A program made the translations under genes and the position numbers. A stretch of DNA of 64,000 nucleotides from positions 3,410,001 to 3,474,000 of the forward strand of contig NW_026889805.1 in NCBI RefSeq assembly GCF_033153115.1. The letters are read 5' to 3'. The stretch's first letter is position 1, and every line of letters starts with the position of its first letter. Below, piece after piece: positions 29,701 through 49,600 of the stretch. The notes beneath the pieces are model-generated. The model was not told the DNA's origin and made no database searches. It saw only the letters and a program-made list of their open reading frames with translations. The stretch comes from Saccostrea echinata (Eukaryota).

Positions 29701-32700
29701 ACCAGGATCCTTCTCTAAACTTACGTAACAACAACATGGTGGTGAGATAGAACAAAAGGTGAATATAGAAGCAGGGAAGTTAAATATTCTCTTTTGGGGT
29801 GTTACTAAAAAATTTTGGAAAGGAAATTGAACTGACAGCACTTTGAAGTTGTTGAAAACAAATTAAACTTGAGATATCCCCTTAAGATTTATGTCTTGCT
29901 GTTTTTGCACCATCTGAATTCCAAATAGCAGTAACACTCACCCACATGGATTTAGGCACAACACACAACTGTTACAAAGGTCATGCCTCACACACATGCA
30001 ACCTTGACCTTTGACCTACTTACATTATTTTGACTAGAGTTTAAGGTAGAACTAAGAACCTTTAATTGATCTTCAAGTTTTTTAACGAGAACTTCTTGCT
30101 CCTTGACCTTGGAAGCTAGTTTGTCATCTGCTGGGTTATTCTGTAGCTGTGTTCTTGTTCTCTGGAAGAAAAAAAAATCATTCAGAAGTTGTATTTTCAC
30201 TACTTTCAAATTACAGCATTACAGCATAAAACCTACTAAATGTTTCATTAATCTAAGCTCTGAAAATTTTCATGTGAAACAGAAAATATACTTTTATTTG
30301 AGAAAAGTTTAAATGGAATATTGCAGTACAGAGAGCTTCTAAAATTAGTTCTTCTTCTTTTCTGTATATAAATGACTAGGAGTTTTTATTAATATTGACA
30401 TATAGTTCCTGACTCTAGCTGCCAACCTGTAATTCCTCTGTGGCATTGTCATAATACTTCTTGATCTCAGAAAGTTTGGAAGCCTGTAGTTCTGCGCTCT
30501 TTCTTGACTGCCAAGAGAGATTTTGTCAGGTTTAAGCAATTACTTACAGTAGACTGTATTATACAAAGTATCAATTATCTATTATATGTAGACTGTATTG
30601 TACAAAGTATCAATTATCTATTATATGTATGGCATAAAGATGTTTCTTTTTGATACAGACTTCTAAAGCATAGATAGATTGTGAAAAGATGAATCAAAAC
30701 TGTACAGAGTACATATAATATTCTAATATAAAATATAATATAAATACTTGGTAGAAAAATCAGTCACATAAACCGTATCCTTGCATCATTTATAAACCTT
30801 AAATTAGCTCAAACAGCAAAATAAAAGCCAACTTTGATGATGGACAGTTGAAAACATTTTAATATCAAAATGTAACTACATCTGATATTTGGAAATCTTG
30901 TATTATCATGTTAGGTCACAAATTATTATAGACTTTTTTTTTTCAATTCATGACATTTTTTCAGGTGAAGCTAGAGGATTATACTCTTATTACTAATTAA
31001 AAGTCACCCACAACCACGCTCACTGTAACTTTAAAGATGATAGTTAATGTGAAAATCCTAATGGATCAAAATAACTGATTCAGAGACTCTGTTTTACAAA
31101 TTAGCTAAAAATACACAAGGTACAAAAAGAGGCTACTGATACCAACATATAGAAGATTTGCTTAAGTTGGTTAGCAATTTACCACTACACTCTCTGGAAG
31201 ATAGATTTGGATGCAATTCATGTCAGTCTTTTCTAAACTAAGAACATCTCACTGCAAGTAAGGCTGCCAATTTTTCTATGTTTTCTGAAGAACATGCACT
31301 TTTCTCTTCACATGGACTCATTATTATAAGACAGATTGCTTTTTTTAAATACTTAACTTGTGGAACTATAATTACATATGGATGTAAAACAGTTTTGATA
31401 AATTTAGCAAAAGAAGTCCAAATCAATTAAATTCCTAGCCACAGTCCTTATTACAATATTTATATTTGCTAACAAGTTTTCTGGTCAATTTAGACACCTG
31501 TCAATGAGAATTCAGACAGTCTACTAATGAACAGACATATTTTATCTTTTATCGTAGTAATACTTAGTAATACTACTCAAAAACATCATTTGTTTCCTTG
31601 CATGTGTTCACCAGTGATAAAAGTGGCCAATATTTCCCTGATCTGGCTCCGGGGCCATAAAACTTAGACGAGCTCACTTTTGATCTCTGTCTCACTTTTT
31701 CACTATAAATTCCTTTCATAAAAGTGAGACTGAGATCCTAAGTCAGCTCATTTTTGTTTCATGGCCCTGGGGCTTGGCCTTATAGAGAAATCCAAAAGTA
31801 TGCCAAGCAAGAACAATGTCTTGTGGGTAAAACAATACATTGATGTTTTTATGAAGATTTCCTTCCTCTAAGTTGTGAAGCAAAGGACATCAACAGCCTA
31901 TCACCAGATTTGGCATGATTTTATGTACAGTTGCAAAAAGAACTTCATGGATAAATTCTGAGAAAACTTTAACTTTATTGGAACCAATCCACACTGGATT
32001 AAGTCAATCCGGCTCAACTTATCCTGGATTAACTTAACCCTAAATATTTAATCCATGTCATGTCCATACAGCAATATAATGTGGAATGGCTTTGCTCTAC
32101 AATCTCGCGTTACCATGTAATAATATCGTCACAATCAAGTCAAGAGAAGGTTACCTACAAAATGGTTGTGGAAATATGTGGATGTGATGTAGGTAAATCC
32201 ATATTTAAGCAAGTTTATTGGAGTTAACTTTGTGGTGTACATCGACTGGACTGAGATTGGTGAATTAACAGAATCCTAATGATTTACATCAACTGGAACA
32301 GGTTTGGTGACTTAAAAGAATCCTACCGACTTACATACTTACATTACAGTTTATACTTAATCATACTTACATCGACTGGAATGGGTTTGGTGACTTTTTC
32401 AGGCGCTTTGTTCATAAGTGTGAGTGCTACAAAGGATCCAGCTGAAAGTAAAAAAAAAATTCATGTCATTAAGTCTGACAAAAAAAAGGGATTCTTAAAA
32501 GAACATTTACCTAGTTTATCATATTTTCAGCAGTGAATTTCTGTAATTTATCTACTGAATATAATTTAAATTTTCATCGACTGTTATTTTCATGGTGAAA
32601 ATAACGTGTTATTTTCACTGGAAAAAAAAAGATTGATTGTATGTTGTTCTACATCCCATTCGAAACTTTTTCACTCATATAGAGACATATTAGTGTTATT

Positions 32701-46686: not shown

Positions 46687-49600
46687 AAGGGTCAAAGTTG
46701 TTGGTATCCAAAGGAAGGCCTTGTCAAAAAGAATACACACGTGAAGTTTGAAACCCCAAGTACCAACTGTTCAGAAGTTATGGCCAATGTTAAAGTCTCA
46801 TAAAATTTTGCACAAGTGGGTCAAACTCCAGGGTCAAGGTCAAAAGGTCAAATATGATGGTACCCAAAGAAAGGTCTTGTCACAAGGAATACACATGTGA
46901 AATATGAAAGTCATAGCTCCAACCAATCAAGTTATGGGCAAGGTTAAAACTGACAACAGACAGACAGACAAACAGACAAATGGACAAACAGGACAAAAAC
47001 AATATACCCCCGTGATCTTTTGATCCGGGGGCATAATAAAACAACAAAATCATCTTCGAAGTGATGACATATTGAACAGCATTACTATAAACCCCACTAT
47101 TTTGAAATTCCACTAGACTTCTAGAATAAAGGGGCAAAAAAACATGGACCTCAACATTTCAGTTTCCTATATTTCTTTTGTAATTGATTGCTTATATAAG
47201 TTTGCCAAACTGGCTGAGGGAATATGCTATGTAGAATTACTTGCAGCATGCTAATGAGATTACTGGTACATAAATCAGTCAATTTCAATGTCAATGAAAC
47301 CTATGACCTTGACATCTCCCCTCCAAACTTGCGAGTTTTTTCCCCCTTTTTTCTAAGATTGATGGTCTGCCATAATTTTCTGGCTGAGCTCATCCTTGAT
47401 GATGGCTTAAAGTGATGGGAGAGAGTTATCAACAAGAAGCTAGGCCTGCCTAATGGTTGCACATTTGTTGCCTTTGATGTCAGACTAGCTGGTTCTATGA
47501 ATTATAGAATACAGGCAGTATATATATATATTAAACTAATTCCTATAGTACTACTTATAGTGACAAGTTTAAACACCTGATGTACACCTGGAAGTTTTTT
47601 TTTTTTAAGTTCTCTAAGTGTATATTACCTGCATACCATAAAAACTAACGTGCAGAAAAATTATGCCTTAACAGTCACAGGAATATTTCCAATGACATAC
47701 CAATACCATCTGTAATATGCATCAAGACTCCACCCATGCATGATCACCCCCTACCCTTGCATCACAACCCAGGGGCAGTGATTCCAGTAGACTGAAGAAA
47801 TGCATTAAAAATAGGAACACAAAAAAACATCCTCATATTGACCTTGTTATACTGTTTACCAACCACTATTCACAATTATACTGTTTACCACCCATTATTT
47901 ACAACAACTTTTATCCCCAATTTGTCAGTTTGAAATCAATTCCCAGCTACCTTTGGTAACATTTGATAGAAATACACAATGAAACAAGCATTCTGAAAGT
48001 ATTGCATTAGCAATACTAGTCCCCTACTGGCAAGTGTAATCTGGTTCCCGTTAAAAATTGAAATTGCCATAATTCCGTCAAAAATCAATGAATCGGAACG
48101 AAATGCAAACTTGATCTATAACTTATCAAGGTAAAGTCACATACCAAAAATCAGCTCAATATCTGCAAGCGTTTAGAAAAAAAGTGTGGAAAACCCTGAA
48201 AAATTTTCAAGGTTGTAATTCCGTCAAAAATCATTGAAGCGGAATGAAATGCAAACTTGATCTGTAACTCATCGAGATACACTCGCATACCAAAAATCAG
48301 CTCAATATCTGCAAGTGTTTAGAAGAAAAGTGCGGAAAACCAAGTGGGACAGATGGACAGACAGACAGACGGACGGACAGACTCAGAGGAAACCTATAGT
48401 CCCCTTTGGTTTCACCGGTAGGGGACTAATAATTGGGTCACATGCAAAATAAATGTTGGTTGTATCCAGAATACCTTTCCAAAATATCTCTGAGAAAAGT
48501 GATGCTTATAATGTAAGAGACCATTCCAGATGATTTGTAATTGAAAAAAAAATCCAAAGATTTCAAGAACATGTATGAAACAGAATACCTCATCTGCACT
48601 GAGATAGGTCATATAAGAGAGACGCATTTCATGTTGTATTACAGTGCACAGAGAAGCAGTGTATATGTCTTAATTAGTCCATTCTAGACCAAATGTATTG
48701 AAAGTATCAAAAAATGATAATAAGAGGAGTCCTATGTAAACTCCGATTTCAATCAAAATGATATGCTTCCCCCTGCATCAATATTTTCCTGGTAATTATG
48801 TCCACTATCAATGAACACCAGCTATATTTACAAATAAACTTTATCATCAAAAATAACTTTTAACGTCTCCTATCTAACCGTGACCTTCATTCCCTCCAGA
48901 TAATTTGGTAGTGATACATTTTGTACATGAAGTGTCAATCCTAACATATATTTGTCAGTAGTCCGTCCTCATTTCTTGACCTCTTCTTACCTTTAATAAG
49001 TTTCACAACTTCTAAGTGGTTTGAGTTTGTGACCAGTGTCCCATTCACCTAAAAATCAAAATAACAAAATTTAACATTTCCAATCTTCAATTGATAAACA
49101 CTTCTTAAATTGTACTTAAAATAAAAAGTAAGGAGACTCCATGTACAGGAAGAAGTCATTGCTAAATTGTTCAGAATAATTTCCCCAACGACACCAGGGC
49201 CTTTTATGACTAGTTCATATGATGAGTTGTCTTTTCTTGTTTTAGACACTTGATGTTTTAGAAGTGACAGCATATAGTCAAAAGTAAGACAAGACTGATG
49301 TATGACTTCCAAGTGATGGTGGCACACACATGCTTATGTAAAACTAAAGATTCCCCGAGTATACCTTCATGTACAATTACTGAGCTATAATGTATCAAAT
49401 CTTCTGGGGATTAGATGTGTGTACTGTATGGCCAAAACAAACAAACATATTCCTCTAGCCTGACCTTCTGACCTTGGGGAAGAGGTTTTTTCCACATCAT
49501 TGCCAGTAATTGGCAGGACCGGTCAAACTGAGGTGGTTTCCAACCAAACCCAGCCAATTCTTATCAACACTACTTACCATACCAACCTCAGGATCACTTG

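Follow-up and report, generated by a model that had tools for sequence, protein, structure and literature searches.

Candidate alternative 5′ exons in the PDZ-splitting intron of an ARHGEF11/12-type gene of the oyster Saccostrea echinata

Gene structure at the locus

The window, the whole stretch of 64,000 nt of Saccostrea echinata DNA that was analyzed, contains a Rho guanine nucleotide exchange factor gene on its minus strand (Table 1). Its long-form protein, P0199, gave Pfam matches over the cut-off for PF00595 (residues 146–214), PF09128 (487–676), PF00621 (979–1161) and PF17838 (1187–1309). The protein thus has the RGS-like RH domain followed by tandem DH-PH that marks the RH-RhoGEFs ARHGEF1, ARHGEF11 and ARHGEF12, together with the N-terminal PDZ domain of the ARHGEF11/12 type. 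The best PDB matches likewise were ARHGEF11, ARHGEF12 and ARHGEF1, with E-values of 2e-89 to 3e-81 for DH-PH, entries 2omj and 5e6p for PDZ and 3cx6 for RH. From this resemblance the oyster protein is predicted to bind G-alpha12/13 and to exchange nucleotide on RhoA. At least one PF09128 match was found in the genome, inside the window, a lower bound from the four candidates scored. In line with the original prediction that one gene could make PDZ-containing and PDZ-less RH-RhoGEFs, models of both kinds belong to this gene.

Table 1. Features of the RH-RhoGEF gene in the window (positions within the window)
Feature	Position	Strand	Remarks
Coding part of one of two PDZ-form first exons	60143..60498	-	MPLGKKWRS...
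Two further PDZ exons	51800..54040	-	About 54040-53942 and 51849-51800; exact P0199 mapping; Pfam PDZ 146-214
Last upstream PDZ exon, donor of full-length path	48991..49048	-	Maps to P0199 residues 188-206
E42, coding part	42600..42618	-	MLEDSE, acidic; leader identical to that of C. virginica X22, XP_078323669.1
E39, probable 5′ untranslated part	39425..40263	-	Upper end undefined; contig pieces
E39, coding part	39391..39424	-	MNKFLEKRRSQ; leader identical to that of S. cucullata X17, XP_062571796.1
E37, candidate	37397..37427	-	MLRKSGTNRR; in frame; donor rank 4/1043; unconfirmed
E35, probable 5′ untranslated part	35475..35927	-	Upper end undefined; contig pieces
E35, coding part	35291..35474	-	61 codons plus 1 nt; RRAS motif in the basic core; joined to 32441
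Shared acceptor exon	32371..32441	-	Last PDZ strand GSFVALTL; in-frame internal ATG at 32415
Shared gene body	1959..30507	-	RH (RGS-like), C1, DH, PH, acidic tail; exact P0199 mapping, 35 blocks below 30507; Pfam

As originally predicted, the PDZ domain is split by a phase-1 intron of about 16.5 kb. This intron measures 16,549 nt, runs from GT to AG and cuts between residues 206 and 207 of P0199; its GC profile shows no island. The exon upstream of it carries, by our reading, the alpha-B helix of the PDZ domain, and the exon downstream of it, with the last PDZ strand, was joined to 30507 in all four sequencing runs described below. The other PDZ-form first exon (MSFSE) lies 1.1 kb outside the window. 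The internal Met of the shared acceptor exon is the start of the models S. echinata X17, S. cucullata X19 and C. virginica X23. Models starting there would imply a further first exon that is non-coding or out of frame.

Within the PDZ-splitting intron, the original prediction placed four ATG-initiated segments with phase-1 GT donors, here called E42, E39, E37 and E35. Their coordinates and peptides were verified on the minus strand. The segments measure 19, 34, 31 and 184 nt, respectively, each of length 3n+1 and ending at a GT, and each would run in frame into the last PDZ strand. Acidic and basic leaders had been foreseen, and net charge is indeed −3 for MLEDSE and +2 to +6 for the basic leaders.

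Chance expectation and RNA contigs

The number of ATG-led phase-1 donors in the intron is not above chance. With at least five codons required, the intron contains 6, 4, 2, 2 and 1 of them at score cut-offs of 2, 3, 4, 5 and 6, compared to 8.8, 5.1, 3.1, 1.7 and 0.9 in 40 Markov resamples and 9, 6, 3, 1 and 1 on the opposite strand. By a donor score that uses an approximate frequency table, the donors of E42, E39 and E35 rank 2, 16 and 141 among the 1043 GT sites. Because the segment count is at chance level, the reality of the exons rests on RNA contigs and on models of other species, and this outside evidence backs three of the four segments (E35, E39 and E42).

The contigs were assembled from four runs (X1–X4) of two samples in one study, presumably RNA, and their alignment spans 29900–43100; the joints and pieces reported here are among those listed. 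Contig depth does not equal expression level, and contigs drop rare forms. The annotated joints 30507/32371 and 30161/30427 were present in all four runs. The joint from 35291 to 32441, bounded by GT..AG, was found in two of the four (depth 9.3 in run X1 and 5.7 in run X2) and is not among the joints listed for runs X3 and X4. Splicing to the shared acceptor was therefore found in the strict sense for E35 only. A 408-nt contig of run X3 aligns from 39768 to 39391 and ends exactly at the E39 donor with 30 letters over, its partner exon not being among the listed joints.

Contigs reach several hundred nt upstream of both exons, although contigs cannot show transcript starts. Overlapping pieces from all four runs cover 39391–40263 in the E39 region, and the pieces at E35 span 35332–35538 (run X1), 35556–35706 (X3) and 35723–35927 (X4). 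The bins with E42 (42248–42688) and E37 (37397–37837) had no contig cover in any of the four runs, which is not evidence against these segments because contigs lose rare forms.

Leaders in other oysters

Several oyster RefSeq models carry the same leaders on the same last PDZ strand. S. echinata X14 (XP_061164880.1) has the exact E35 form, its residues 1–61 being the E35 peptide. Similar models are S. cucullata X15 and X17 (XP_062571794.1, XP_062571796.1), C. virginica X18 and X22 (XP_078323665.1, XP_078323669.1), O. edulis X47–X50 and M. angulata X4 (XP_052722212.1). The PDZ-less isoforms are thus partly annotated already, with at least one RefSeq model in S. echinata. However, these are automatic predictions without functional description, and X14 may rest on the same DNA.

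Conservation was judged on the protein models of relatives rather than on genomic DNA. By this measure, the homologues of E35 show 85% identity in S. cucullata, 64% in O. edulis, 59% in C. virginica and 69% in M. angulata. ATG, frame and junction are shared and the basic core is kept in five oyster species, where 18 of 19 consecutive positions of the five-row alignment (12–31, less two) are invariant or nearly so. A word-based search of longer proteins with the 61 residues of E35 had scored none of its seven candidates, a false blank since the homologues were found later among the RefSeq models. E35 gave no usable ESM Atlas match and only a sub-threshold Pfam match to Sec31. A search of shorter proteins with residues 1–135 of P0095 had 162 candidates, of which 11 were returned. 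Each of these read through the shared exon without splicing, and none added a new leader.

The original prediction had warned that the short exons could be chance. The warning agrees with the counts, but not with the matches of E42 in C. virginica and of E39 in S. cucullata; the E39 leader is conserved within the genus only, among the rows listed. The acidic leaders of 9–10 residues of two scallops may be related to E42. For E37 the warning stands. No match was found among 419 collected proteins, which covered 15 members from each of the large oyster clusters of 27, 25, 162 and 35, and E37 occurs in none of the listed oyster RefSeq models (S. echinata X15 and X16 fall outside this list). We give about even odds that E37 is a real exon.

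PDZ-less models in other animals

Pfam matched RH, C1, DH and PH in the proteins P0095, P0089, P0100, P0083 and P0391, and PDZ in none of them. Beyond oysters, PDZ-less models that join at this strand are known for mussels (Mytilus, two leaders), two scallops, the pearl oyster Pinctada, the snails Littorina and Nucella, and the chiton Liolophura; those of the snails and Pinctada come from genome projects and could be 5′-incomplete. With this spread, the PDZ-dropping arrangement is probably pan-molluscan and old. Most of the leader peptides are not homologous, however, and most mussel, snail and chiton leaders cannot be aligned to those of oysters. Likewise, nothing in the S. echinata intron corresponds to the leaders of C. 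virginica X20 and M. gigas X23. This suggests that the exons turn over and that some may be noise. A micro-exon of the MN type, like the start of M. gigas X26 and X28, was not found in the intron 30023–28230. The PDZ-less models of hemichordate and beetle begin at internal Mets, which leaves their first exon unplaced; the one fish-like cluster examined had a single member.

Probable alternative first exons and competing explanations

Our results favor, with a probability of roughly 0.8, the explanation that the PDZ-splitting intron of this ARHGEF11/12-type gene holds alternative 5′ exons giving PDZ-less RH-C1-DH-PH forms. These would likely be first exons, each transcribed from its own internal promoter, and would splice to the last-PDZ-strand exon, so that a short leader takes the place of the PDZ domain. 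The resulting PDZ-less proteins may still answer G-alpha12/13 via RH and activate Rho, while being unable to dock on receptor tails via PDZ. The exons are likely real and of an ordinary kind, in which internal promoters remove the PDZ domain.

An alternative explanation might be that the full-length transcript takes up the segments as internal cassette or poison exons, so that its frame would stop after an incomplete PDZ domain and decay would lower output, leaving the ATG-led frames incidental. Acceptor-like tracts do lie upstream of E35 (35914–35899) and E37 (38217), upstream ATGs are many (six in the 5′ part of E35 and 19 in the contig-covered 5′ stretch of E39), and the blindness of contigs to transcript starts leaves room for such exons. 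Yet among five species the E35 peptide varies along its flanks but hardly at all in its core, a pattern that requires translation to begin at its own ATG, and the 1.3 kb upstream of E39 and of E42 showed no acceptor-like tract. Moreover, a TAG lies in frame four codons upstream of the E35 ATG and a contig passes over it unspliced, which speaks against an in-frame cassette. One contig is also unspliced over 35899, albeit by only about 28 nt and hence below the 31-letter rule of the alignment tool. We therefore regard poison exons as improbable. More improbable still, to the point of being nearly negligible, is that all four segments are ATG..GT matches that arose by chance because the intron is long. 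Although the counts equal those of the resampled and antisense controls, the spliced contigs refute chance for E35, and the contig ending at the E39 donor and the models of other species make it very unlikely for E39 and E42, leaving it open only for E37.

A more serious possibility, although one that we still consider rather unlikely, is that only E35 is functional and that the short exons are low-level starts which merely drop the PDZ domain, their peptides being irrelevant and the internal Met serving equally well. This would fit the internal-Met models in three oyster species, the variation of short leaders between lineages, the confinement of E39 identity to one genus and the start contexts of E39 and E37, which look weak by the Kozak rule (T at −1). 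It fits less well with MLEDSE, which is identical in Saccostrea and Crassostrea, whereas the expected chance count of this peptide followed by GT is 5e-6 per intron. A short acidic leader is found in scallops too, and mussels again have basic leaders with motifs of the RRxS/KRxS type. This alternative is partly compatible with the preferred reading of alternative 5′ exons.

Comparison with known systems

The PDZ domain of PDZ-bearing RH-RhoGEFs binds receptor tails, and p115RhoGEF (ARHGEF1) lacks this domain (PMC2686409; PMC9700851). The analogy drawn earlier between the short oyster forms and p115RhoGEF holds for the missing PDZ domain, but not beyond it. Five PDZ-less proteins, taken as p115-type, start 23–26 residues before the acidic IIGAEDE motif, just ahead of RH. 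In contrast, about 298 residues precede this motif in the oyster PDZ-less form (at 299 in P0095), about 270 more before RH than in the presumed p115-type proteins; the oyster form also keeps C1 and comes from the same gene as the long form. Compared by genes rather than by isoforms, vertebrates have three (ARHGEF11 or PDZ-RhoGEF, ARHGEF12 or LARG, and ARHGEF1), whereas a single oyster gene accounts for both the PDZ-plus and the PDZ-minus isoforms.

The mechanism would be ordinary alternative-promoter biology, partly present in automatic annotation. First exons giving PDZ-less ARHGEF11/12 were not found described in the literature searched, which largely excluded subscription papers. SHANK3 offers a parallel, as multiple intragenic promoters yield isoforms with different domain sets (PMC4113141). 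However, SHANK3 is unrelated to the oyster gene, and experiments have addressed its promoters, expression and localization, whereas the oyster promoters are inferred. In the available text on C. elegans RHGF-1 (PMC6611649), a PDZ-less isoform is not mentioned; the domain order there, PDZ, RGS, C1, DH and PH, is that of the full-length oyster protein.

Implications for G12/13-to-Rho signaling

These results correct the view that invertebrates relay G12/13 signals to Rho through one PDZ-bearing protein, as molluscs appear to make docked and undocked versions from one gene. Consequently, part of the output would escape knock-downs or probes that target the PDZ exons. More speculatively, and with considerable doubt on our side, the on/off promoter switch of the PDZ domain could be of molluscan or perhaps even bilaterian age. 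By means of it, the single invertebrate RH-RhoGEF would exchange receptor docking for short leaders, some of which would be basic membrane tags regulated by kinases. In vertebrates, the separation of PDZ-bearing LARG and PDZ-RhoGEF from PDZ-less p115RhoGEF would then have fixed a prior division between isoforms.

RRxS is the consensus of a protein-kinase-A-type site. The invariant basic core of E35, with its Cys and RRxS, might tentatively be seen as a phosphorylation-sensitive tag for binding membranes or partners in place of PDZ targeting. The conserved core is an uncharacterized short motif that is open to direct testing.

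Gene structure and domains

The sequence 35250-35700 had one match in the 923-Mb genome, and a PH-domain exon of the gene matched ARHGEF11-like RefSeq models of Saccostrea echinata at 100% identity. The longest of these, the PDZ-bearing P0199, could be placed exactly on the window, exon by exon. A genome search for the RH family returned at least one match, inside the window (four candidates scored). Because the 16,549-base intron lies at residue 206/207 of P0199, within the Pfam PDZ domain, it separates the last PDZ strand from the rest of the domain; we assigned helices and strands from known PDZ topology. 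PDZ-bearing full-length forms have two alternative start exons above the PDZ, one at 60498 and one (MSFSE) just outside the window.

Features of the gene (window coordinates; P0199 residues where stated)
Feature	Position	Strand	Remark
PDZ	residues 146-214		Pfam
RH	residues 487-676		Pfam
C1	residues 709-760		Pfam
DH	residues 979-1161		Pfam
PH	residues 1187-1309		Pfam
Long first exon, PDZ-bearing form	60498-60143	minus	opens with a KKWRS motif that is conserved in limpet, abalone, chiton and bivalves; carries three repeats of SR[DE]DL type (GSRENL type in scallops and mussels)
PDZ-splitting intron	48990-32442	minus
E42	42618-42600	minus	MLEDSE, acidic
E39	39424-39391	minus	MNKFLEKRRSQ
E37	37427-37397	minus	MLRKSGTNRR
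E35	35474-35291	minus	61 codons + 1 nt, RRAS core
Shared acceptor exon	32441-32371	minus	last PDZ strand (GSFVALTL)
Strong donors out of frame with shared exon	42860, 42856	minus	~250 nt above E42 donor
Strong donor out of frame with shared exon	37209	minus	~190 nt below E37 donor
V-x-x-L-x-x-x-Y-D motif	16544-16434 (residues 840-848)	minus	between C1 and DH
Tandem arrays, 146-bp unit	46023-46948; 52618-53160		in opposite introns
Common 87-bp flanks of the arrays	44855; 52533
Different insertion, ~900 bp	near 46020-45000		similar ends; by eye
Three degenerate copies, 30-bp unit	32237-32396		3' end of shared exon into next intron

The 146-bp arrays are probably a common oyster repeat element, which the ~900-bp insertion appears to interrupt.

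Alternative exons within the PDZ-splitting intron

Three of the four candidate exons (E35, E39 and E42) are real. All four segments lie where the original prediction placed them, each 3n+1 bases long, ending at GT and in frame into the shared exon. Its caveat that the three short exons could be chance holds for the sequence taken alone. With an approximate donor table, ATG-led phase-1 donors with at least five codons numbered 6, 4, 2, 2 and 1 in the intron at cut-offs 2 to 6, versus means of 8.8, 5.1, 3.1, 1.7 and 0.9 in forty Markov resamples and 9, 6, 3, 1 and 1 on the opposite strand. Therefore, sequence alone does not establish a bank of exons. Of the four exons, E35 has the most support and the lowest-ranking donor (141 of 1043).

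Protein models and RNA contigs carry the argument. The 199 tabulated proteins include PDZ-less models in which a leader is joined to the last PDZ strand, as in the window. E35 is the exact leader of S. echinata isoform X14, with homologues in S. cucullata (85% identical), Magallana angulata (69%), Ostrea edulis (64%, four models) and Crassostrea virginica (59%); positions 12-19, 21-24 and 26-31 are invariant. The E39 peptide is identical to the leader of S. cucullata X17, and the E42 peptide, whose chance expectation with its GT is 5e-6 in this intron, to that of C. virginica X22. The acidic leaders, 9-10 residues long, of two scallops may represent the same exon as E42. The E37 peptide matched none of 419 proteins, a set in which the large oyster clusters of 27, 25, 162 and 35 members were covered by 15 listed members each. 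Two oyster leaders had no counterpart in this intron.

Since listed model numbers drop with length, S. echinata X15 and X16, outside those listed, should fall between 1695 and 1625 residues. The predicted E39, E37 and E42 forms have 1645, 1644 and 1640 residues, and the gap would accommodate two of them.

The region 35250-35800 retrieved four sequencing runs (X1-X4) that are presumably RNA. They belong to a single study and derive from two samples; their contigs were placed on 29900-43100. The annotated joints 30161/30427 and 30507/32371 occurred in 4/4 runs, so that these behave as spliced RNA. The predicted junction 35291 to 32441 (GT..AG) was found in X1 and X2, at rough contig depths, not expression levels, of 9.3 versus 55.6 and 5.7 versus 19.2 for the common downstream path; it was absent from the joints listed for X3 and X4. 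A 408-base X3 contig aligned from 39768 to 39391, ending at the E39 donor with 30 letters remaining, as would a spliced contig; no splice partner was among the 15 joints listed (22 further joints). Above E35 the contig pieces extend to 35927 and above E39 to 40263, consistent with long 5' exons; these covered stretches contain 6 and 19 upstream ATGs, respectively. Because contigs cannot reveal transcription starts, we infer that the supported exons are likely first exons.

Models beginning at an internal Met (32415) occur in three oyster species, implying an additional non-coding first exon, for which the donors 42860 and 37209 are candidates. All three out-of-frame donors may be additional donors of the E42 and E37 5' exons and yield the internal-Met isoform. 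Magallana gigas models X26 and X28 begin MN and continue with the exon at 28226, which implies that translation can start internally at another place as well; intron 30023-28227 of the window yielded no micro-exon to match.

Breadth beyond oysters

Models with this join also exist for Mytilus (two basic leaders), Pinctada, Littorina and Nucella, and for the chiton Liolophura sinensis (X7, 34-residue basic leader), whose sister models are PDZ-bearing. Gene models of the snails and of Pinctada may be incomplete. One of 11 models of the hemichordate Glandiceps and one of three of the beetle Nicrophorus are PDZ-less and start at an internal Met; no PDZ-less form was among seven full-length Acropora sequences examined. 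In gene models, the arrangement is probably a pan-molluscan pattern, of which the literature searched gave no description. Leaders are mostly unalignable between families; conservation concerns the use of this intron for a new start and, to a lesser degree, the peptides.

Possible function and known systems

As proposed, one gene has both PDZ-containing and PDZ-less forms as models. The short forms keep RH, C1, DH and PH and lack the PDZ except its last strand (Pfam, models). According to an excerpt of PMC2686409, the mammalian LARG PDZ binds plexin-B1, the IGF-1 receptor and Unc5B. The oyster short form would likely be a RhoGEF still responsive to G-alpha12/13 and untethered from receptor tails. 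The E35 core, invariant and basic, includes a Cys and an RRAS site conforming to a kinase consensus; mussel leaders contain KRPS and RRKSS. Our best guess, at roughly one chance in three, is that this core is a putative kinase-sensitive targeting tag.

The proposed likeness to p115RhoGEF holds for the missing PDZ and fails for the start: five PDZ-less proteins that we take to be p115-type start 23-26 residues ahead of the acidic motif, whereas in the oyster short form it lies at 299. The lack of a PDZ in p115RhoGEF is stated in an excerpt of PMC9700851. The portion available of PMC5499878 gives (PDZ)/RGS/C1/DH/PH as ancestral, with duplications in vertebrates, and does not discuss PDZ-less isoforms. 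RHGF-1 has the oyster domains, and the excerpt of PMC6611649 describes no short isoform. Internal promoters altering domain content are established for SHANK3 (PMC4113141, in part), and no title found in the literature searched concerned this arrangement. The oyster case adds a further example of a well-known mechanism and is in part already annotated.

The motif between C1 and DH resembles in sequence the short F-actin-binding motif of ARHGEF11 (V1/L4/F8/E9). The pattern, composed after the motif was seen, matched once each in 9/11 proteins of a first set (all nine bivalve; the two misses partial) and in 8/17 of a second (limpet, abalone, chiton, a freshwater mussel and four others), against 0.013 per shuffle. 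An excerpt of PMC13364712 places the origin of the ARHGEF11 motif in Euteleostomi, with none in Mollusca; judged by sequence resemblance, an F-actin-binding-like motif may be older than stated there.
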